A stretch of 32,000 nucleotides of DNA from an uncultured Chloroflexia bacterium (GTDB taxonomy: Bacteria > Chloroflexota > Ktedonobacteria > Ktedonobacterales > JADMIN01), in contig CAVRAI010000007.1 in the NCBI GenBank assembly GCA_963718915.1, forward strand, positions 300,001 to 332,000, given 5' to 3'. Below the pieces are notes generated by a model that was not told where the DNA came from, did no database searches, and saw only the letters and a list, made by a program, of their open reading frames with translations. Each line of letters begins with the position of its first letter. Positions within the stretch are counted from its first letter, which is position 1. Below are positions 5,619 through 29,973 of this stretch, one piece after another. Both the position numbers and the translations under genes were made by a program.

Positions 5619-8159
5619 TCAGGAACCTACTTGTATCGCGATCTGTAACGTTGGCACAGTTGCCTGCGCGACAGGTAGTGTGGCCGTCTGAGCGCTGAGG
5701 CTGCTTCCTGCCTGCACGGCCAGGTTCGCTCCCGCCGCGACATAGCTGTATCCATCGGTCGCGGTCGCCTGGGCGACGAATCCCGTGGGCCAGATGATGC
5801 GTTCTCTGGCAGGCTGCCAGCTTACCAGCAGCAGGCTCACAACACTGGTTGCGCCACTCCACGAGACGCCGTTGAACTGCGCCGAGGTTACGTGGCCGTG
5901 GCCCCCGTTGTCATTCGTGGCGAGGGCGCTCACCGCCAGGATGGGGCTGGCCGACGCGCCACGATAGGCGAGGACAATACCACCGCCATCCGCGTAGGAA
6001 GCCGCTCGGAGGGTGACCGTCGCGCCTGAGTCGGCGTTTGTGGCGATCTTCCACCACCAGTTCAACCCCTGCCTGTCAGGATGCCCCCCTCCGGCTCCTG
6101 CTGTCCAACCGGTAGGGGTGGTCCAGCTTGCCGGAGACCCATTCGAGCCTGCCGCCGCAATCAGCAGATCGCCTGCCTGCACGCCGGGAATCTTGATGCT
6201 GACGCCCGCGCTAAAGTTGCCCTTGGCCGTTGAGCTGCCGGTCAGCGTCATGCCAGTTGTGGGCGTAACCCCTGTCCCTGATAGCGGGACACTCTGCGGG
6301 CTGCCACCTGCGTTGTCGCTGATGCTCACCGCCGCGCTACGCGAACCTGCGACGGTGGGTGAAAACGTGACACTTATGGCGCAGGTGGCCCCAGACGCCA
6401 GGGTATTCGGGCTGATTGGGCAGTTAGCCGACTCGGCAAAATCAGCCGCGTTTGCCCCGCCCAGCGCAATACTACTGATGGTTAGCGACGCGGCGCCGCT
6501 ATTGGTCAGCGTGATCGACTGCGCCGCGCTCGTCGTTCCGACATTCTGGCTGCCGAAGCTGGCAGTGGTGGGGCTGAGTGTCACACCTGGGGCTGACGTT
6601 ACTCCCACGCCTGTCAGTGACAGGCTCTGCGGACTGTCGCTCGCGCTGTCGGTGATGCTCACTGTCCCGCTACGAGTTCCCGAAGCTGATGGCGTGAACG
6701 TGACACGTATCGTGCAGGAACCATGAGCGGCCAGCGTGCTGGGCGTCAGGGGGCAGGTCGTCGTCTCGGCAAAGTCGGCGGCATTCGTGCCGCTCACCGC
6801 GAGGCCGTTGATCGTCAAAGCGGCGTTACCCGAGTTGGTGAGAGTGACTGTCTGCGCGGCGCTGCTCGTCCCGACGTTCTGGCTGCCGAAATTGAGACTC
6901 GTCGGCGAGAGTGAGACGGCAGGCGCTAAGGAGGGCGCGTAGATGTTGGCAATGGACCACTGTTCCCAAATGCGCTGATACTGCTCGAATCCGTTCAATT
7001 GACCGCTGGGGGCCTGGTAGGTGGGATGGATGCAATCAGACGAAATCCAACTGTGATTCTGAGAGAACGGCGTCCACAGATCCGGGCCGCGAATGGCGCT
7101 GGGTCGATCAGTGGCGAGATGCGCATTCACGAAGGTATTCAACGCCTGGGCGTTCTGGCCCAGATCGCCATTGCAGCCCCACGGCACATATGGCACGATG
7201 GCAATCTTCCCGGCGCTCTGCGCGGCATCAATCATCGCGAGCATGTTCGCGTAGTAGGTCTGAATCTGGCTCGTCGAGAGCACATATGGCTCGTTGGCAT
7301 CGTTCGTGCCGAATGCCAGACTTACGTATTTGCCCGTAAAGCCACTCATCAGCGCGGCGATATTCTGCGCGCCATCGTCACTCGTCCAGCCGCCCATGCC
7401 GCCATCGATCTGCAGCGGATAGTAGGATGCGTCGGCGCTATGTACAAGCTGCGCGTAATCCCCACTCGTCCAGGGGCCACCGGCGACATTCGCCTGCGTC
7501 ATGCCTTCCTCAGTGATACTATCACCCAGGAAAAGCCAGTCATCCTGATCGCCCGCGCTCGCGTCATAGAGATCGAGATTGAACGCGGCGCTGGTGTTGC
7601 CGCTGGAGCCTTTGCTCCCCGTCACCGTCATACGCACCCAGTTATCACCGGAAAGATTGACGACATGCTCGCGCGCATTGCGTGTGTTGCCAGTCACAGT
7701 GAGCAGCGTAACCCATCCTGCGCTGGGCGGTGCGCCAGCGCCACCGGCTGCCGCATTGGCGTCAATCGTATAGTTCGACGGCAGGTTGTAGAAGATGTTA
7801 TCGGCGCCGGGCAAATACTCTCCCGAATCGTTAAACCAGGCCAGGATGACTTGCTGCCGTTTTGCCACAGGCACGGTCGAGAGATCCAGGGCAACCCAGA
7901 TGGGATGCGCGCTGCTGGGCGTATCCACGCTGTCCCAGACTGTGCCGTAATTCGTGTCGTTGGCCAGCGATGGATCATAGGCGTTGGGGTCGTTGGTGTA
8001 GGCGGGGAGATTGGCGGAGATCAGCGAGAGTGGCGTTAGGGCGGGCGAGGAGGCTGCATGCGCCTCGCGTGGTTGCCACCATGGTAGCGCGACGCATACG
8101 AGCGCCGCCAGCACAAGGAGGATGCCCCATTGGCGCACTGGATGCCGTCGCGTCGTCAT
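5619..8159 (-). CDS. Secreted multidomain hydrolase: discoidin-like domain, SGNH/GDSL esterase domain, two tandem Ig-like (choice-of-anchor-D-like) domains, unknown C-terminal domain
   Basis: The ORF extends to 8300, but I prefer the ATG at 8159 (MTTRRHPVRQWGILLVLAALVCVALP..AHAASS signal peptide; AGAAAGG upstream). SGNH block I is LFLGDSITEEG; the GTNDA block and block V DCIHPT are present. Repeats resemble ..FGSQNVGT(S/T)SAAQ..TLTNSG...NAADFAE...C.. The C-terminal 210 aa are unassigned. Confidence 0.85.
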   Translation of the reverse strand: MTTRRHPVRQWGILLVLAALVCVALPWWQPREAHAASSPALTPLSLISANLPAYTNDPNAYDPSLANDTNYGTVWDSVDTPSSAHPIWVALDLSTVPVAKRQQVILAWFNDSGEYLPGADNIFYNLPSNYTIDANAAAGGAGAPPSAGWVTLLTVTGNTRNAREHVVNLSGDNWVRMTVTGSKGSSGNTSAAFNLDLYDASAGDQDDWLFLGDSITEEGMTQANVAGGPWTSGDYAQLVHSADASYYPLQIDGGMGGWTSDDGAQNIAALMSGFTGKYVSLAFGTNDANEPYVLSTSQIQTYYANMLAMIDAAQSAGKIAIVPYVPWGCNGDLGQNAQALNTFVNAHLATDRPSAIRGPDLWTPFSQNHSWISSDCIHPTYQAPSGQLNGFEQYQRIWEQWSIANIYAPSLAPAVSLSPTSLNFGSQNVGTSSAAQTVTLTNSGNAALTINGLAVSGTNAADFAETTTCPLTPSTLAAHGSCTIRVTFTPSASGTRSGTVSITDSASDSPQSLSLTGVGVTSAPGVTLSPTTASFGSQNVGTTSAAQSITLTNSGAASLTISSIALGGANAADFAESANCPISPNTLASGATCAISVTFSPTVAGSRSAAVSISDNAGGSPQSVPLSGTGVTPTTGMTLTGSSTAKGNFSAGVSIKIPGVQAGDLLIAAAGSNGSPASWTTPTGWTAGAGGGHPDRQGLNWWWKIATNADSGATVTLRAASYADGGGIVLAYRGASASPILAVSALATNDNGGHGHVTSAQFNGVSWSGATSVVSLLLVSWQPARERIIWPTGFVAQATATDGYSYVAAGANLAVQAGSSLSAQTATLPVAQATVPTLQIAIQVGS
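6258..6926 (-). repeat. Tandem duplication of a roughly 111-aa Ig-like domain within the hydrolase gene
   Basis: Copy 1 is residues 459-569 of the 893-aa ORF (nt 6594-6926); copy 2 is residues 570-681 (nt 6258-6593). By eye well over half the positions are identical. This also produces the repetitive antisense ORFs 6013..6726 and 6736..6942. Confidence 0.85.
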
Positions 8160-18463: not shown

Positions 18464-20401
18464 ATGTCGCAGCAAACGGTATCTGGACGAGCGCATGGGC
18501 AGGGTCTCGCTCCCGTCTCGGCGGTCTGGGCGGAAGGTGACTTTGCGGTGCATCCCCTTGCCCTGGCGGCGCCACTGATCGACGGACGCGCGGCTATGCT
18601 GACGATGTGCGTCTCGTTCCTGCTGGCGCGTACGAGCATCTGGATTGCCGATTGGAGCATCTATGCGCGACTGGCGCTGGTGCGCGGCCAGGATCAACGG
18701 GCAGGTCAGGATGGTTCCGATGCGCAATATGCCCTGATCGAGCGTCTGCGCGCCGTTGGGCTGGATAGCGATGCCATCGCGCTCTGGCGCTCTGGCGGCC
18801 TTTCGCTGGTGGATGTGCTGGGGCTGGCGGTGCGCCGTGGCGTCGATGTGCGCGTCTTGCTCTGGGATCCGCTCGACCCATTCTATCTGGGCCACCTGGG
18901 GAATGACCCTGCGGCACAGGCGGAGATCCTTGCACGGCAAGGTGTGCCGTATCGGCTGGATAAGAACTGTCGCTCGGTGCTCCATCTCGCGCAGGGACTG
19001 CACCAGAAATGCGCTGTCGTGGATAGCCAGGTAGCCTTTGTCGGCGGTATCGACCTCACCGTCGAATATTCCGGCGACTTTGATCGCTGGGATACCTCCA
19101 ACCATCCGTTCGCATCGGCACTGCGCAATACCGACCGTGGCGCCTCGCCGCATCCCTGGCATGATGCCCAGGTGATGCTTACGGGAGACGCGGTTCTGGA
19201 TGTGGAGCAGAACCTGCGCCAGCGTTGGGATGCCTCGGCTGGCCGCACGCAACAGCGCATTCAGCCGCCGGGCGATCTCATTCGTGGCATGCGTGGAGCA
19301 ATCGAGAAAAGCGGGCGCCATCTCCAGGGGCGGACCGAGCAGGCGCACGATGGCGCGCCTGTACCCCAGCATAGTGCGGATCGTACCGAGGCGCGAGCGA
19401 GCCAATCCGAGGGGCGTCTCCAGATCGTGCGGACTATCCCGGCGCTGACCTATCGTTTCGCGCCCGGTGGCATCTATGGCATCGCGCAGTGGTATCAGCG
19501 GGCGGTTCGACGGGCCGAGCGCTTTATCTACCTCGAAACCCAGTATCTCTGGGTCGAAGGCCCACCAAAGCTGAACTTTACGCGCTTGGGATGGGAGAGC
19601 CGCAAGATGCGCGCGCTCGTGGAAGAGCTAGCGGCGGCGGCGGAACGTGGCGTCCGCATTGTGCTGGTCTTGCCCGACCACCCAAATATTGGCCGCGCTG
19701 TGACCGATGATACGATTGGGTGGCTTCGCCGCCACGCGCCAGAGGCCACGGCGGCAAATCGCGTGCGGGTCTATACCCTGGCCACCTCCAGCGCTGCCGA
19801 CGATGGCATGATGCGTTACCGCCCGGTCTACGTTCACGCCAAGATTGGGATCGTCGATGATCGCTGGGCAATCGTCGGCTCGGCTAACCTCAACAGTCGC
19901 GGCATGAGCCACGACGCCGAGTTGTCTGTCGCCATCGACGATGATGCATCCGCGCGCGGGTTGCGGCGAATCCTCTGGACGGAGCATACTGCCGCGCCGC
20001 TGCCGGGCGATATGCCATGGCCGCTTGGCGACCTCGCCCTGGCGAACCAGACACCAGGCATGCAGCTTGCCGGACGCGCGCTGGCGCTGGTGGATGCGCT
20101 GGCGGCGATGCCCGATACTGGCCTGCCGACCACTCTATCAACTCCATCGCCGGAAGCGGATGCCCTGGCCGCGAGTCTGGCCGATCCCGAAACGGGCATG
20201 CGGGAGCTTGCGCGCCTGGCGGACAAGAATCTGAGCCATTTGCGCAATGGCGAGCCGCTCTCCGGTCATCTGCTGCCTTATCTTCGGGCCGCCGATGGGC
20301 CAGAATATGGGCTGACTGTCGAGCGACATCGCGGCCTGCTCGATCCATTGCGTGAGGTTCGTGAGGGGGTCGTCGTACCACACTACAACCGCTATATCTA
20401 G
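18464..20401 (+). CDS. Phospholipase D / transphosphatidylase superfamily protein (two HKD motifs)
   Basis: 645 aa. HKD 1 is LHQKCAVVDSQVAFVGGIDLT; HKD 2 is VHAKIGIVDDRWAIVGSANLNSRG. The WHDAQVMLTGDAV block is typical of PLD/Cls-type enzymes. No obvious TM helices. Confidence 0.85.
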   Translation: MSQQTVSGRAHGQGLAPVSAVWAEGDFAVHPLALAAPLIDGRAAMLTMCVSFLLARTSIWIADWSIYARLALVRGQDQRAGQDGSDAQYALIERLRAVGLDSDAIALWRSGGLSLVDVLGLAVRRGVDVRVLLWDPLDPFYLGHLGNDPAAQAEILARQGVPYRLDKNCRSVLHLAQGLHQKCAVVDSQVAFVGGIDLTVEYSGDFDRWDTSNHPFASALRNTDRGASPHPWHDAQVMLTGDAVLDVEQNLRQRWDASAGRTQQRIQPPGDLIRGMRGAIEKSGRHLQGRTEQAHDGAPVPQHSADRTEARASQSEGRLQIVRTIPALTYRFAPGGIYGIAQWYQRAVRRAERFIYLETQYLWVEGPPKLNFTRLGWESRKMRALVEELAAAAERGVRIVLVLPDHPNIGRAVTDDTIGWLRRHAPEATAANRVRVYTLATSSAADDGMMRYRPVYVHAKIGIVDDRWAIVGSANLNSRGMSHDAELSVAIDDDASARGLRRILWTEHTAAPLPGDMPWPLGDLALANQTPGMQLAGRALALVDALAAMPDTGLPTTLSTPSPEADALAASLADPETGMRELARLADKNLSHLRNGEPLSGHLLPYLRAADGPEYGLTVERHRGLLDPLREVREGVVVPHYNRYI

Positions 20402-20453
20402 CGAATTGATGCGCGGCGGCGGGAGCGGAAGCGATTTGAGAAAGAGAAGAGTG

Positions 20454-21224
20454 ATGGCATCATCCTCGGAGCAGACGCCGGATAAGGCGTTCTCGGAAAG
20501 CGTGGCGCTCGAACCGGTCTCGCAGCGCTGGACTCGTCGTGACACCAAACTCATCGCCGGGCTGTGGGCGCTCACCGCTGTCGCATTGACGCTGCTCTCA
20601 ATCGCGGCGCATTTTAGCGCCGAATTTCCCGGCGACGAAGGCATCGCCATTCTCATTCAGAAGATATCGTTCCCGCCACTGGCCCATTTCATCGAGTTCA
20701 GCAGTGATGCCAACTGGCCTGCTCCAGCGGCATATGCAGCGCTCGCCATCATTATTGTCCTGTTGCTGGCGCGGCAGCTCAGCGCCGCCATTGCGGCGGT
20801 GGTCGCGTCGTTTGGCGCAGACCTCGCCAATGTGATACTGAATGCGCTCGTTGCACGATCACGCCCCCACAACATCCATATTCACGTGGTCGCCGACCTC
20901 GGACTGTACAGCTTTCCATCGGGACATGTGACCCATGTGGTCACGTTCTATGGCTTTCTCCTCTATCTCACGTTCCGCTTCGCGCGCGAGCATCCGCGGT
21001 GGACGCCGCTGCTGTGGGGCGTGCGGATAGTCTGTCTCTATTTCCTGGTTTTTATTGGTCCGGCGCGGGTGCTGGAGGGCGAACACTGGCCGAGTGACGT
21101 ACTGGGCAGCTACCTGCTGGCCAGCCTGATGCTGGTGGTTGCCATCGCGCTCTATCACCTGCTGCTGCTGGGATTCGCGCGGCTGCGGGACTGGCTTGCG
21201 ATACGGCGGTCGCGGCTTGCCTGA
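20454..21224 (+). CDS. PAP2-family (type 2 phosphatidic acid phosphatase-like) membrane phosphatase
   Basis: PAP2 motifs: ..ARSRP.., SFPSGH, and ARVLEGEHWPSDVLG (SR-x5-H-x3-D-like). Multiple TM helices. The ORF opens at 20352 and overlaps the PLD gene. The ATG at 20454 has a purine-rich GAGAAAGAGAAGAG upstream (alternative ATG at 20409). Confidence 0.8.
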   Translation: MASSSEQTPDKAFSESVALEPVSQRWTRRDTKLIAGLWALTAVALTLLSIAAHFSAEFPGDEGIAILIQKISFPPLAHFIEFSSDANWPAPAAYAALAIIIVLLLARQLSAAIAAVVASFGADLANVILNALVARSRPHNIHIHVVADLGLYSFPSGHVTHVVTFYGFLLYLTFRFAREHPRWTPLLWGVRIVCLYFLVFIGPARVLEGEHWPSDVLGSYLLASLMLVVAIALYHLLLLGFARLRDWLAIRRSRLA

Positions 21225-21746: not shown

Positions 21747-23264
21747 TTATTCCTCCTGATAGTACTCGAGGCCGAGGTGGGTGATCTGCTCTTCGCCCAT
21801 CATCCAGCGAAGCGTGTTCTTCAGCTTCGTCTGCTGGATGAAGAAATCGTGCTCCGGGTACACAGTGGCGGCGTGCTGCGGGCTTTTGAAGTAGAAGGAC
21901 AGCCATTCCTGGATGCCCTTCATGCCGGCTCGCTTGGCCAGGTCGAGGAAAAGAGCGAGGTCAAGAAGAAGTGGCGCGGCGAGAATCGAATCGCGGCACA
22001 GGAAGTCGATCTTTATCTGCATGGGGTAGCCGAGCCAGCCGAAGATGTCGATGTTGTCCCAGCCCTCTTTGTTGTCGCCCCGGGGCGGGTAATAGTTGAT
22101 CCGCACCTTGTGATAGACGTCGCTATAGAGTGCGGGGTAGAGCTGGGGCTGGAGGATGTACTCGAGGACGCCGAGCTTCGACTCTTCCTTGGTCTTGAAG
22201 CTCTCTGGGTCGTCAAGAACCTCACCATCGCGATTGCCGAGGATGTTCGTCGAGTACCAGCCGTTGAGGCCGAGCATGCGCGCCTTCAGCATCGGCGCGA
22301 GAACCGTCTTGATCAGGGTCTGGCCGGTCTTGAAGTCCTTGCCGCAGATCGGAACGCCCTGGTCGACTGCCAGCTTGACCAGCGCCGGGATGTCAGCAGT
22401 CAGGTTGGGGGCGCCGTTAGCGAAGGGGATGCCTTCCATCAGGGCGGCATAGGCGTAGAGCATCGAGGGGGCGATAGTTTCGTCGTTGGCGTTGAGCGCC
22501 GCCTCAAAGCTTTCGAGGTTGAGGTGGCTTGGTCCCTCCTCCATGTAGATCTCGGTCGAGGCGCACCAGACCATGACGAGGCGGTCGCAGTTGTTTGCGG
22601 ACTTGAAGTTGCGAATGTCCGCGCGAATCTGCTCGGTCAGCTCCATCTTCGTGCCGCGCTTGACGTTAGGCCCGTTGAGGCGCTTGACGTAGTACTGGTC
22701 GAATGCGGCCGGCATTGGCGTGATGGACTTGAGGAAGTCGGCGATGGGTTCGATGTGTTCGTAGCGGTCAAGGACGCCGCACTTCACCGCTGCCTCGTAG
22801 GCGTTGTCGGGGAAGGGGTCCCAGGCGCCGAAGACAATGTCGTCCAGGTTCGCGAGCGGGACGAACTCGCGGATGAGGGGCGAGCGATTTTCCGTTCGCT
22901 TGCCAAGGCGGATCGTGCCCATCTGGGTGAGCGAGCCTACGGGTCGGCCGCTGCCGCGACGGGCGTGCTCGACGCCGCTGATGAACGTTGAGGCGACGGC
23001 GCCGAGGCCGACGAGAAGGATGCCGAGGCGGCCCTCTGCCGGCTGGATCGGGTCGGGCTTGAGTTCGACGAAGTCTTTTGCTTCCAAGATCACACCTCTC
23101 TGGCGGCCGAGTGACATGAGCGGCACTTGCCATTGGGCTGGTACCCGCCCTGTCCTCGCCCAGTGTTCGATAGTACTCTGCCTCTTGCCAAGCAGGGCGG
23201 CAAGAGCGCTCTGGCCGCCGAAGCGCCTGATTATCCGCTCGGCGGCGTTCGATCCTTGTTCCAT
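21747..23264 (-). CDS. ino1: myo-Inositol-1-phosphate (inositol-3-phosphate) synthase with a roughly 65-aa N-terminal HTH-like extension
   Basis: The MIPS core starts at the Rossmann segment RLGILLVGLGAVASTFISGVEHA and includes GWYSTNILGNRDG and NIDIFGWLGYPMQIKIDFLCRDSILAAP. The ORF opens with TTG at 23300. The ATG at 23264 has AGGA 8 nt upstream. The N-terminus MEQGSNAAERIIRRFGGQSALAALLGKRQSTIEHWARTGRVPAQW reads like a Cro/YdaS-type helix-turn-helix. Confidence 0.88.
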   Translation of the reverse strand: MEQGSNAAERIIRRFGGQSALAALLGKRQSTIEHWARTGRVPAQWQVPLMSLGRQRGVILEAKDFVELKPDPIQPAEGRLGILLVGLGAVASTFISGVEHARRGSGRPVGSLTQMGTIRLGKRTENRSPLIREFVPLANLDDIVFGAWDPFPDNAYEAAVKCGVLDRYEHIEPIADFLKSITPMPAAFDQYYVKRLNGPNVKRGTKMELTEQIRADIRNFKSANNCDRLVMVWCASTEIYMEEGPSHLNLESFEAALNANDETIAPSMLYAYAALMEGIPFANGAPNLTADIPALVKLAVDQGVPICGKDFKTGQTLIKTVLAPMLKARMLGLNGWYSTNILGNRDGEVLDDPESFKTKEESKLGVLEYILQPQLYPALYSDVYHKVRINYYPPRGDNKEGWDNIDIFGWLGYPMQIKIDFLCRDSILAAPLLLDLALFLDLAKRAGMKGIQEWLSFYFKSPQHAATVYPEHDFFIQQTKLKNTLRWMMGEEQITHLGLEYYQEE

Positions 23265-23276
23265 GGTAGATATCCT

Positions 23277-23291
23277 AACGAATTTTTCGTT
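23277..23291. promoter_or_regulatory. Perfect AT-rich palindrome AACGAA-TTT-TTCGTT at the MIPS start (candidate operator or RNA hairpin)
   Basis: 6-bp arms, 3-bp spacer. Lies 13-27 nt upstream of ATG 23264 and abuts the SD. It fills the 17-bp spacer of a weak candidate promoter: TTGCAT (23300-23295) and TAGGAT (23277-23272). Confidence 0.45.
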
Positions 23292-23526
23292 ATTATGCAA
23301 GTGCGCGTCAGAAAGAGGCAGGACGACCTATGCGCCTGTGCAGGGTTTTGAGGGCATGGGTGAGGGCTATTTCGGGACTGACTGGCCCTGCGGATGAACG
23401 AGCGATTTGGGTATCTTGCTCGTCAAGCCACTCCGCCAGCCCGATGTCGCAACACACCAGCGACGATGCCCAGGAGATCCAACCGCTCCGCCACATTTCC
23501 AGCCGACGCTGGCCTACTCTCCATAC

Positions 23527-23551
23527 ACGCCGCACGCCGCACGCCGCACGC
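23527..23551. repeat. Intergenic tandem repeat, 7-bp unit ACGCCGC x3.6
   Basis: acgccgc acgccgc acgccgc acgc, read directly. Confidence 0.95.
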
Positions 23552-23742
23552 TTCGCTCTTCGCCTCGCTCTATTCTCCAAAAAACGTCAAGCGGTCGTGC
23601 GAAAAGTGGGGTGTAGCGATCCGCTCGCTAGCGGGTAGCGCGTTGGGACACTGCCTGGGAGTCCGCGTAGGGCAGCCGCGCGGAGCGGCAGCGGCCCAGC
23701 AGGCGGACTTGGTGGCCGCAGGCCCTCAATTGCGCGATTTCA

Positions 23743-23805
23743 ACTGCCCGCGCTGCCCACGCTGCCCACGCTGCCCACGCTGCCCACGCTGCCCACGCTG
23801 CCCAG
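23743..23805. repeat. Intergenic tandem repeat, 9-bp unit GCTGCCCAC x7 (5 perfect, 2 variant)
   Basis: actgcccgc, then gctgcccac x5, then gctgcccag. It generates the artefactual CPRCPRCPRC (+) and WAAWAAWAAW (-) ORFs. Confidence 0.95.
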
Positions 23806-23867
23806 CGCGTGTCCTTCGTATTTTCTAAAGCAACAGAAGGCTCCAGCAAATGAGTGGAGGAAATTTG

Positions 23868-23887
23868 CCGTAGCGTTGACGCTACGG
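23868..23887 (-). terminator. Perfect 8-bp hairpin CCGTAGCG-TTGA-CGCTACGG
   Basis: Read directly. On the minus strand it is followed by CAAATTTCC. About 150 nt downstream of the hydrolase stop. Confidence 0.35.
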
Positions 23888-23958
23888 TCTGCCTCGCCCG
23901 CCACGACGCGCGCTGTTCGGATAAAAAGTGAAGGGTCGTATATGCCTGGTTATGCTGA

Positions 23959-24002
23959 TGAGGCCTCCAACTCCCCAGTGTGGAGAGAAACTGAAGGCCT
24001 CA
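23959..24002 (-). terminator. Nested hairpin just downstream of the hydrolase stop
   Basis: TGAGGCCT (23959-23966) pairs with AGGCCTCA (23995-24002). Inner CTCC/GGAG pairing. About 30 nt after the stop at 24034. Confidence 0.3.
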
Positions 24003-24033
24003 TGCGAGCGCCAATACTTGAATGGAGAACGTG

Positions 24034-24825
24034 TCAATCGGTAAAGAACTTTACCAACACGGGGACAAGGATGCCAGGATCAATAGCGTGGGTCTGGCCT
24101 TCCAGCGTAATGCGGCGCGCATTGGGCAAGACATCGGCGACTGCCTGAGCCGCGTTGTGCATCCAGACCGGACTGTCTCCGCCATCCATGACGAGCGTTG
24201 GTATCGTGACGGCGGCCCATTGTCCCGGTGGAAACGGCTTGCCCGCCATGTTGCCTTCCATGATCGCGCCATCGTAGGCAAGCGTGTGCGCCATCGCCTC
24301 CATCGCGGGCCACATCGGCGCCTGCCGCATTTGAGCCAGTGCCTCATTGGGGACCTCTACCGCATTCGCCAGGAAGTACTCGACCGCCTCGCCGCGTCGC
24401 CCCGACGAGGCAAGCTCGCCCAGATGAGACACATAGCCCGTCGGTATTGGCTTGCGCGTAGTATCGACGATAAACGGCGGATCGTAGAGCGCTAGCTTTG
24501 TGATGGGGAGGCCGCGATTTGCCGCTTCGAGGGCAAGCGCCGCGCCAGAAGATTTCCCAAACACGCATGCCGATCCGCCGACTGCGGCGATGAGCGCTGC
24601 TATATCTTCGACCTCGCGCTCGACCGCGTACGGATGTGTATCGCCGCTATCTCCGCGCCCGCGTCGGTCAAAGTTGATCACTGTGAAGTGTGGGGCAAGC
24701 AGCGCGGCCACTGGAGCCGCCGCCGTGCGGTCGCTGAGCGCGCCGCCGACGAGGATAACGGCTGGTCCCGCTCCTGATTGGTCAAAGGCGATTGTCGTGC
24801 TGTCGTTCGAGATGACTGTCCGCAT
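24034..24825 (-). CDS. Alpha/beta-fold hydrolase
   Basis: ATG at 24825 with AGGAG 9 nt upstream (the ORF opens at 24849). Nucleophile elbow VFGKSSGAALAL (G-x-S-x-G), oxyanion-region VILVGG, C-terminal LEGQTHAID (His). Paralog of the 27066-27846 locus. Confidence 0.85.
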   Translation of the reverse strand: MRTVISNDSTTIAFDQSGAGPAVILVGGALSDRTAAAPVAALLAPHFTVINFDRRGRGDSGDTHPYAVEREVEDIAALIAAVGGSACVFGKSSGAALALEAANRGLPITKLALYDPPFIVDTTRKPIPTGYVSHLGELASSGRRGEAVEYFLANAVEVPNEALAQMRQAPMWPAMEAMAHTLAYDGAIMEGNMAGKPFPPGQWAAVTIPTLVMDGGDSPVWMHNAAQAVADVLPNARRITLEGQTHAIDPGILVPVLVKFFTD

Positions 24826-29550: not shown

Positions 29551-29973
29551 CATACTTGTTTCTCCCTGGCACATGGGTTGTCCCTCCATTCCGCCGCTCA
29601 GCCTGATTTGTGGAAGCTGACGGTGGCGATATCCCGCGCGTATGTCATGCTTGCGCCCCATCGCTCCAGCTTGTATGCTATGCGAGGTATTTCGCGGACA
29701 GGGGGAATATTGAACGTTTTGAAGTAGCGCCCGGCCCGAACGTGGAGGCGTTTTGGGTGACGCGGTGGGAACTATGCGAGCGATTCGGCGGGTGGTTCCC
29801 CGGCAGCACAGTCGTGACGTACGCGGCAAACCGGCACGGATTGCGCGGCGACAATGAGCGTACGAGGTGCTCCTCCCTTCCTTGCGGAAAATCTCCAATC
29901 TCCACAATCGCCAGCGATCCGCACGATGACCGTGGCGGTTCGTCGTGCCATGCGCGCCGGAAGGGATTTGCAC

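Follow-up and report, generated by a model that had tools for sequence, protein, structure and literature searches.

The fused gene and its product

The locus considered here lies on the minus strand of a 32-kb stretch of DNA from an uncultured Chloroflexia bacterium of the order Ktedonobacterales (GenBank assembly GCA_963718915.1, contig CAVRAI010000007.1, positions 300,001 to 332,000), hereafter called the window. It comprises a gene for myo-inositol-1-phosphate synthase (MIPS), whose product carries an N-terminal helix-turn-helix (HTH) domain, and a 17-bp palindrome situated in the putative promoter of that gene. An open reading frame (ORF) without a stop codon extends from 23300 to 21747, and the gene itself (23264..21747) encodes a protein of 505 amino acids, referred to below as HTH-MIPS. 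This agrees with the initial annotation of the window, made from the letters alone, in which the MIPS frame was seen to run on upstream with no stop. The features of the locus are the following.

23295..23300, minus strand: -35-like hexamer TTGCAT, 2 nt before the palindrome; its TTG opens the longest mechanical ORF
23276..23292, no strand assigned: 17-bp palindromic operator candidate TAACGAA-AAA-TTCGTTA (as on the minus strand), unique in the window and conserved upstream of fused genes
23272..23277, minus strand: -10-like hexamer TAGGAT, its first two bases being the last two of the palindrome; the TAnnnT register recurs in nearly all of 38 sites
23262..23264, minus strand: ATG start codon, 7 nt past the -10 hexamer, in agreement with the N-termini of homologues; the mRNA is probably leaderless
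23085..23243, minus strand: Cro-like HTH domain, residues 8-60 (NCBIfam 'carph-isopro'), from NF046037, AlphaFold2 and Foldseek
23034..23084, minus strand: linker between the HTH and the Rossmann fold, residues 61-77, variable in homologues except for a conserved DF motif, with lower model confidence
21747..23033, minus strand: MIPS catalytic core, residues 78-505, and stop codon; Pfam NAD_binding_5 and Inos-1-P_synth, match to PDB 7nwr

Residues 80-486 match both MIPS profiles of Pfam above their curated thresholds, NAD_binding_5 (PF07994) with E = 3.4e-95 and 319.6 bits (cutoff 25) and Inos-1-P_synth (PF01658) with E = 1.1e-33 and 116.1 bits (cutoff 27). The stretches GLGAVAST, VWCASTEIY, NGAPNLT and STNILGNRDG, all present in the 505-residue protein, we take to be the counterparts of the classic conserved MIPS stretches. 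Judged by its sequence, the part comprising residues 78-505 is a myo-inositol-1-phosphate synthase, and catalysis by the 505-residue protein is predicted from the same similarity. The PDB sequence closest to the catalytic part is 7NWR (E = 1.2e-170, 59% identity). The entry is the structure of BT_1526, a MIPS from Bacteroides thetaiotaomicron, which is enzymatically active, forms a tetramer and feeds into the synthesis of inositol lipids (PMC9246714). In the databases, the fused proteins are annotated simply as inositol-3-phosphate synthase.

The ATG at 23264 is the position at which the N-termini of most homologues begin in alignments of 17 and of 95 sequences, the majority of them within a few residues. 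Several homologues have Leu or Ile in place of the internal Met of the motif PLMSLG; this Met is hence not a conserved alternative start. The upstream ATG preferred by the initial annotation over this Met is thus the conserved start.

The initial annotation also proposed that the extension is an HTH domain of the Cro/YdaS type and suggested profile searches and structure prediction on the N-terminal residues. Residues 8-60 span positions 1-53 of the 54 positions of NF046037, the 'carph-isopro domain', which scores 54.9 bits with the full protein and 59.9 bits with the N-terminus alone (cutoff 38). Over the first 60 residues the gathering thresholds of Pfam are not reached, either for YdaS_toxin (PF15943; 24.7 versus 30) or for P22_Cro (PF14549; 22.3 versus 30.2). 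By sequence, therefore, the domain is a relative of these two families and no member of either by the curated threshold. The nearest PDB sequence to the N-terminus is Xfaso1 Cro, 3bd1 (E = 3e-5, 36-42% identity).

AlphaFold2 was run on the full-length protein, using 95 fused homologues, and on the domain alone, using 52 diverse family members. Both models contain four helices (residues 7-14, 18-25, 29-38 and 43-56), and the mean pLDDT of the domain-only model is 87. In the full-length model, the helices are followed by the Rossmann fold; this model matches 7NWR at 59% identity and, separately, 3bd1. The best PDB matches that Foldseek returns for the domain model are all DNA-binding proteins of the Cro or CI type, with TM scores of 0.65-0.70 and an rmsd of about 2 Å. 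They include Xfaso1 Cro (3bd1, TM 0.66-0.69, rmsd 2.2 Å), P22 Cro (1rzs, TM 0.65-0.69) and N15 Cro, both alone (2hin) and bound to its operator (6on0, TM 0.67-0.70). On this account the extension is assigned to the Cro-type HTH domains. The third helix of the model (residues 29-38, STIEHWARTG) is the probable recognition helix. Residues F15, Q18, Q29-S30-T31, W35, G39, P42 and W45 are invariant in the 95 fused homologues, and the domain is about as well conserved as the enzyme, with 55-91% identity between classes. That a conserved HTH domain is truly fused to MIPS appears virtually certain.

The fusion is widespread in relatives. The best 120 clusters at 90% identity are about 505 residues long, and in 119 of them the alignment spans 98% or more of the fused query, with identities of 79-98%; the clusters carrying names are Ktedonobacterales, Thermomicrobiales, Dehalococcoidia and Tepidiformaceae. 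The whole fusion is found in 12 loci of GTDB species genomes (L001-L011 and L018), all of the Chloroflexota type, L007 being labelled as an Acidobacteriota metagenome-assembled genome. The orthologues of Gemmatimonadota, Actinomycetota and Acidobacteria share 69-77% identity with it in the core; they begin near residue 70 of the query and are therefore unfused. With the N-terminus as the query, tblastn over the genome loci found no match outside the fused loci except in L024, from Plantactinospora endophytica NBRC 110450. Here, the MIPS core is intact, but before it stands only the remnant of an HTH that has decayed, with stops and a frameshift; this points to a gene that was acquired horizontally from a fused ancestor and later lost the domain. 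The remnant, at 5800-6000 of the locus, reads ..IRRIHRFAG*CALARMSRKRQSAAERSARTGRIAAH* and is out of frame with the actinomycete MIPS; another palindrome, GATGTATC-N5-GATACATC, is found just upstream. In the Tepidiformaceae locus L012 the HTH domain is gone altogether.

Three loci (P0304/L081, P0145/L083 and P0303/L210) seemed to present a split form, in which a stand-alone HTH gene with its own operator lies beside MIPS. These were rejected as an arrangement in their own right, being frameshifted fusions in long-read metagenome assemblies. Counts of domain architectures drawn from such assemblies would overestimate split forms.

The palindrome and its place in the promoter

The palindrome was first described as the 15-mer AACGAAtttTTCGTT at 23277-23291, 13-27 nt before the ATG. 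The position is as stated there, and the symmetry extends further, to the 17-bp element TAACGAA-N3-TTCGTTA at 23276-23292. On the minus strand, the region upstream of the gene reads cac-TTGCAT-aa-TAACGAAAAATTCGTTA-GGAT-atctacc-ATG. The palindrome had been called conspicuous, which holds in part. It occurs once in the window and in none of 100 shuffled sequences as an exact match, whereas with 2 mismatches allowed a match is found in 26 of the 100 shuffles. The single copy is thus only moderately remarkable by itself, and its significance comes from conservation.

To follow the element in other genomes, the region of 6 kb on either side of each gene was scanned with up to 3 mismatches over 14 specified positions. 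At this setting, 11 of the 12 fused genome loci have the palindrome directly 5' of the gene, and the 68 unfused loci all lack it at this position. When no more than 1 mismatch is tolerated over 896 kb of loci and the window, matches appear in fused loci only and directly 5' of the fused gene only. A relaxed form of the 15-mer matches 7 of 80 loci, every one of them fused. Apart from the motif, the upstream sequences cannot be aligned, which argues against general promoter conservation. Neither of the two loci in which the HTH domain decayed or disappeared (L024 and L012) has the operator. Loss of the domain thus coincides with absence of the palindrome, and the two cases may be counted as natural loss experiments for the link between operator and domain. 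The survey of MIPS homologues that the initial annotation called for therefore yields both the extension and the palindrome in relatives across several classes of Chloroflexota.

Metagenome contigs were scanned with the exact 17-mer, which gave 80 loci. In 28 of these, the ATG, GTG or TTG of a carph-isopro ORF lies 10-12 nt downstream of the 17-mer, and the ORF runs into MIPS wherever the contig is long enough. Among contigs with a GC content of at least 0.55, 25 of 26 show the HTH ORF at this distance; the remaining matches, on low-GC contigs, look like chance or unrelated sequence. Taken together, these observations make it very probable that the palindrome is a selected cis-element linked to the HTH domain.

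In addition to the single operators, the Chloroflexia locus L003 carries two copies 29 bp apart (5944-5990), TAACGGAAAATTCGTTA and TATCGAAATTATCGTTA, the second being followed by TAGGGT, 7 nt and a GTG. Such a pair could serve cooperative binding by a tetramer.

Alignment of 38 distinct sites on the motif reveals a fixed geometry, TTGc.. – 2 nt – TAACGAAAAATTCGT|TA..aT – 6-8 nt – ATG/GTG. The TTG of the -35 box is kept in most of them (TTGCAT, TTGACA, TTGACT, TTGACG), many being near-consensus. The spacer between the -35 and -10 boxes measures 17 nt and is filled by the palindrome, whose final TA begins the -10 box. The initial annotation had already located the palindrome between the two boxes of a candidate promoter, and the 38 sites share this same register. 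It had also read an 'AGGA' next to the palindrome as a Shine-Dalgarno (SD) sequence. This does not stand, since these letters are part of the -10 hexamer TAGGAT, at whose position the homologues have TATTAT, TATCAT, TAATGT or TATGAT, and no purine-rich SD is conserved.

A start codon (ATG, GTG or TTG) lies 10-12 nt past the palindrome, that is 6-8 nt past the -10 box, in 28 of 28 metagenome sites with an HTH and in most genome loci. With no SD and with 6-8 nt between the end of a TAnnnT box and the start codon, the arrangement found is that expected of leaderless genes. Their published mark is a TAnnnT box some 10 nt ahead of the start, and such genes have been reported in Chloroflexi (PMC3160421). 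From this pattern the mRNA is probably leaderless. Since the -10 box ends so close to the start codon, the palindrome most likely lies upstream of the transcription start, in the classic position of a repressor site.

Proposed autorepression and the competing explanations

The layout of the locus led to the proposal that HTH-MIPS represses its own, probably leaderless, promoter. The protein would be bifunctional, with a Cro-type HTH joined through a short linker to an active and probably tetrameric MIPS. The closest solved MIPS being a tetramer (PMC9246714), the oligomer would display its HTH domains in pairs. A pair would bind the two AACGAA half-sites of TAACGAA-N3-TTCGTTA, whose centres are 9 bp apart. 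Occupancy of an operator placed in the 17-nt spacer and the -10 box would exclude RNA polymerase from the gene's own promoter, and the outcome would be negative autoregulation of the level of the enzyme that carries out the first committed step of inositol synthesis. The likeness to the layout of lambda cI and PRM suggests that the cassette may derive from the repressor of a mobile element. By analogy with BirA, PutA and NadR it may be speculated that occupancy of the enzyme by glucose-6-phosphate, NAD(H) or an inositol phosphate modulates DNA binding. We infer that the fused HTH is itself the binder, that binding represses rather than activates and that the transcript is leaderless. As a whole, the autorepressor model appears likely to us, on evidence that is comparative yet of unusual cleanness. 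The points on which the initial annotation had staked its own reading (the fold of the extension, the position of the start codon, and the presence of extension and palindrome in close relatives) all came out in support of an interpretation in which the enzyme acts on an operator.

Several observations weigh against this model. The -35 hexamer in the window matches TTGACA at only 3 of 6 positions, and the promoter tool missed the minus-strand promoter, so its assignment rests on the comparative pattern and not on the promoter scan. What the tool did call is a plus-strand, sigma-70-like TAGATA-18-TATTAT at 23267-23296, in the same AT-rich patch and pointing away from MIPS, which may either drive divergent transcription or simply mirror the minus-strand promoter. 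In L018 and L083 the leaders are about 100 nt long. The metagenome sites were chosen by the exact motif, and only their flanks and downstream gene count as independent evidence. Moreover, all fused loci come from one phylum, which makes the co-occurrence of HTH and operator partly non-independent phylogenetically. In the Dehalococcoidia locus L011 (5960-6000) the HTH is kept, at 59% identity, and the palindrome is instead AATAATT-N5-AATTATT, directly before the ATG. Family members with different palindromes have an almost identical predicted recognition helix. Among the fused loci, no co-variation between helix and operator could be read, the helix being nearly invariant. Finally, control of DNA binding by metabolites is pure conjecture, offered by analogy.

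In an alternative model, the palindrome serves as operator for some other transcription factor of Chloroflexota, and the fused HTH has a different role, for instance tethering the enzyme to the nucleoid, contacting another protein or binding other DNA. Regulation specific to the lineage could mimic the association observed, given that the fused loci are confined to one phylum. Furthermore, the site is not tied to the fused gene only. In L141 (about 660-2100, minus-strand orientation, 64% GC), an exact 17-bp operator fills the spacer of a good promoter, TTGACT-17-TATAGT, that precedes a gene without an HTH, encoding a 453-residue membrane glycosyltransferase of the GT-C/PMT_2 type. This case is explained equally well if the glycosyltransferase gene belongs to a regulon of HTH-MIPS, and from its sequence it is a possible second target. 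Against a separate factor, the palindrome is missing from both of the loci that independently lost the HTH, and AACG-N7-CGTT or similar palindromes also precede the genes of otherwise unrelated proteins that carry this HTH (see below). A 17-bp palindrome is, besides, the classic size of a target for dimers of the Cro/CI type. On balance, this alternative seems improbable.

It may also be asked whether HTH-MIPS binds the palindrome and acts as an activator, or whether it mainly regulates other inositol-related genes, its self-control being a side effect. The operator in front of the L141 glycosyltransferase would suit the latter, and so would L121 (226-1100). In this locus a copy that runs from the promoter through the operator to about codon 24 of the HTH (up to GGQSALAxL) abuts, in another frame, the C-terminal two-thirds of a protein of the inositol-monophosphatase family (Pfam Inositol_P, 2.7e-30). 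A similar truncated copy of promoter, operator and HTH, at 258-400 of L147, adjoins unrelated sequence. L141, L121 and L147 may be real members of a regulon, rearrangements (with a common breakpoint in L121 and L147), or assembly chimeras. No second site was found within 6 kb on either side of any fused gene, nor elsewhere in the window, which speaks against a regulon. Activation, for its part, is at odds with the location of the site, which takes up a spacer of the optimal 17 nt and reaches into the -10 box, as repressor sites do; activators of the MerR type, which bind in the spacer, need over-long spacers of 19-20 nt. We regard this explanation, in either form, as quite unlikely.

According to the initial annotation, the palindrome might act instead as a hairpin in the 5' leader RNA that masks the ribosome-binding site and gates the SD. 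A 7-bp stem of -4.5 to -5 kcal/mol can indeed be drawn, and the variants in L002, L003 and L018 alter one arm in a way compatible with G-U pairing. However, 78 of 200 shuffled sequences fold at least as well (z-score -0.23), the element lies between the -35 and -10 boxes with the start codon 6-8 nt past the latter and is probably not transcribed, and nothing like an SD is present in the homologues where the window has 'AGGA'. The variants in L004, L008, L009 and L010 break pairs without compensation, and no compensatory double change occurs in any variant. The RNA-structure reading is rejected on its folding energy, its position and the absent covariation, and we consider it very unlikely indeed.

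It is just as hard to believe that the extension is a relic without function, or that it results from misannotation, and that translation starts near the Rossmann fold: unfused orthologues show that the enzyme works without the domain and cluster P0053 is annotated from the internal Met, but the domain is conserved across classes to about the same degree as the enzyme, with invariant HTH residues, it decays fast to stops and frameshifts where it is not maintained (L024), and both the replacement of the internal Met and the geometry of the promoter indicate the upstream ATG.

The carph-isopro family, related systems and significance

The 75 N-terminal residues of HTH-MIPS were used in an exhaustive HMMER search, which yielded 435 representatives at 50% identity with the consensus KFGGQSALAxLLGKxQSTVQxWxKTGxIPAKW. 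Word-indexed protein searches with the N-terminus returned almost only fragments at contig ends, and the list of partners given here comes from the exhaustive search. In this family the domain is N-terminal to P63C, MEDS, RhuM, IalB, a metallo-beta-lactamase/Apyc1-like domain, DHBP synthase and TruB. HTH-MIPS is formally a member of the carph-isopro proteins of NF046037, with MIPS as one partner among many. Five proteins of 400-900 residues (P0144, P0159, P0193, P0218 and P0258) contain 5 to 11 tandem copies of the domain.

Where DNA could be fetched, the upstream regions of members not linked to MIPS were inspected for palindromes. Such a palindrome precedes the own gene of L086, linked to P63C (AACGAATAATTCGTT), of L211, whose downstream sequence is RhuM-like by eye alone (TAACGAAATTATCGTTT), and of L082, a stand-alone carph-isopro protein (AACGATAAGTCCGTT). 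In L209, an HTH-MEDS gene, the palindrome TACCGGATATTCTGGTA has exactly the same spacer/-10 register as in the fused MIPS loci, and in L208, an HTH-DHBP synthase gene, TTAGTTC-N5-GAACTAA lies just past the -10 box. As these members have palindromes at their own genes, the domain would be a DNA-binding, autoregulatory module, and the reader of the AACGAA-type half-sites would be this domain and not a different factor.

In an AT-rich lineage, two loci, one with a carph-isopro gene overlapping a P63C gene (L084, about 200-400) and one where the overlap of such a gene is with the start of GMP synthase (L085, about 2540-2740), have nearly identical promoters and 5' untranslated regions, TTGACA..TACCAAC..TATTAT..AACAAGGAGGTTGGTA..ATG, with the inverted repeat TACCAAC/GTTGGTA. 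Promoter and HTH may move together here as a cassette.

A broader proposal can be put forward, tentatively and as a possibility at best. Promoter, palindromic operator and leaderless Cro-like HTH might form a portable self-repressing cassette that unrelated genes have acquired at their 5' ends on repeated occasions, each host protein becoming its own repressor. Its partners would be MIPS, DHBP synthase, TruB, MEDS sensors, P63C and RhuM proteins and the gene overlapping the GMP synthase start. The Chloroflexota MIPS version would perhaps, in addition, sense metabolites and govern a small inositol regulon, with the inositol-monophosphatase-family gene and the GT-C glycosyltransferase as candidate members.

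In functional terms, HTH-MIPS belongs with the bifunctional enzyme-repressors, or 'trigger enzymes', while its DNA-binding part is structurally a Cro relative. The bacterial examples are PutA (a ribbon-helix-helix domain with proline dehydrogenase and P5C dehydrogenase), BirA (a winged HTH with biotin ligase) and NadR (an HTH with NMN adenylyltransferase). As in these proteins, a DNA-binding domain and a metabolic enzyme form one conserved polypeptide, and a palindromic operator lies in the promoter of the own gene or pathway; for HTH-MIPS, it stands in register in 38 sites and is absent from that position in the unfused loci. Trigger enzymes exert feedback on transcription at the level of enzyme or metabolite; for HTH-MIPS, the binding and its effect on transcription are predicted. 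Unlike them, it combines a MIPS enzyme with an all-alpha Cro-type HTH and an apparently leaderless promoter. An archaeal counterpart among such fusions is RbkR, a riboflavin kinase with a DNA-binding domain (PMC5397151).

With the lambdoid Cro and CI proteins (P22, N15 and Xfaso1 Cro), HTH-MIPS shares the fold and a palindromic operator of about 17 bp overlapping the promoter. Lambda cI, too, regulates its own gene, and the PRM transcript from which it is made is leaderless. Its arrangement at PRM is mirrored here by the operator within the promoter, the leaderless AUG and the N-terminal HTH. In contrast to the lambdoid Cro proteins, the domain is fused to a housekeeping enzyme of 430 residues and is chromosomal, with no prophage context. 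Dimerisation would presumably come from the oligomer of the enzyme and not, as in Cro, from the domain.

MIPS catalyses the committed step of inositol synthesis and is under dedicated transcriptional regulators in yeast and actinobacteria. IpsA, of the LacI type, regulates ino1 in Corynebacterium and Mycobacterium, while Opi1 and Ino2-Ino4 control INO1 of yeast. Transcriptional control of the MIPS gene is thus common to these systems and to the one proposed here. The difference is that IpsA and Opi1/Ino2-Ino4 are separate proteins that sense inositol or the state of the lipids, whereas in HTH-MIPS the regulator is part of the enzyme. BT_1526 (7NWR) has the same fold and its 59% identity extends over the whole core, but it has no HTH and its gene, unlike the fused one, lies in an inositol-lipid cluster.

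The initial annotation knew of no characterised HTH-MIPS fusion. In line with this, searches of the open-access literature (MIPS with helix-turn-helix or DNA-binding) returned no description of the fusion or of its operator, and searches for 'carph-isopro' found no paper on the domain family.

Besides the gene itself, no conserved neighbours were found among 13 fused loci, either with tblastn of the window's neighbours or by all-against-all clustering of ORFs. This fits a self-contained unit. In the window, the plus strand at 18464-21224 encodes a PLD-like protein of 645 residues with two PLDc motifs and, overlapping it, a PAP2 phosphatase of 290 residues, both converging on the 3' end of MIPS. 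They might suggest phospholipid head-group chemistry. A tie of this pair to MIPS was rejected, since no other locus has the pair beside the fused gene. The MIPS promoter is preceded by a non-coding gap of about 730 bp (23300-24034) that contains perfect short tandem repeats, CACGCCG x3.7 at 23526-23551 and CTGCCCACG x6.8 at 23744-23804, and has no Rfam match. Farther away, at 29715-29874 on the plus strand, lies a glmS glucosamine-6-phosphate ribozyme/riboswitch (Rfam RF00234, 51.1 bits against a gathering score of 37, full-length model), followed by a plus-strand ORF.

The prediction arising from this analysis is a concrete one, consisting of a 17-bp operator, a 60-residue domain and a leaderless promoter. 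So compact a module of promoter, operator and repressor is of possible use as a self-limiting expression part. For the family, carph-isopro, a curated domain that decorates many proteins, would gain a probable function in autoregulatory DNA binding. For the organisms, it appears that a whole phylum has built the regulator into the enzyme, which, if true, would be a new and very compact form of enzyme-mediated gene control.

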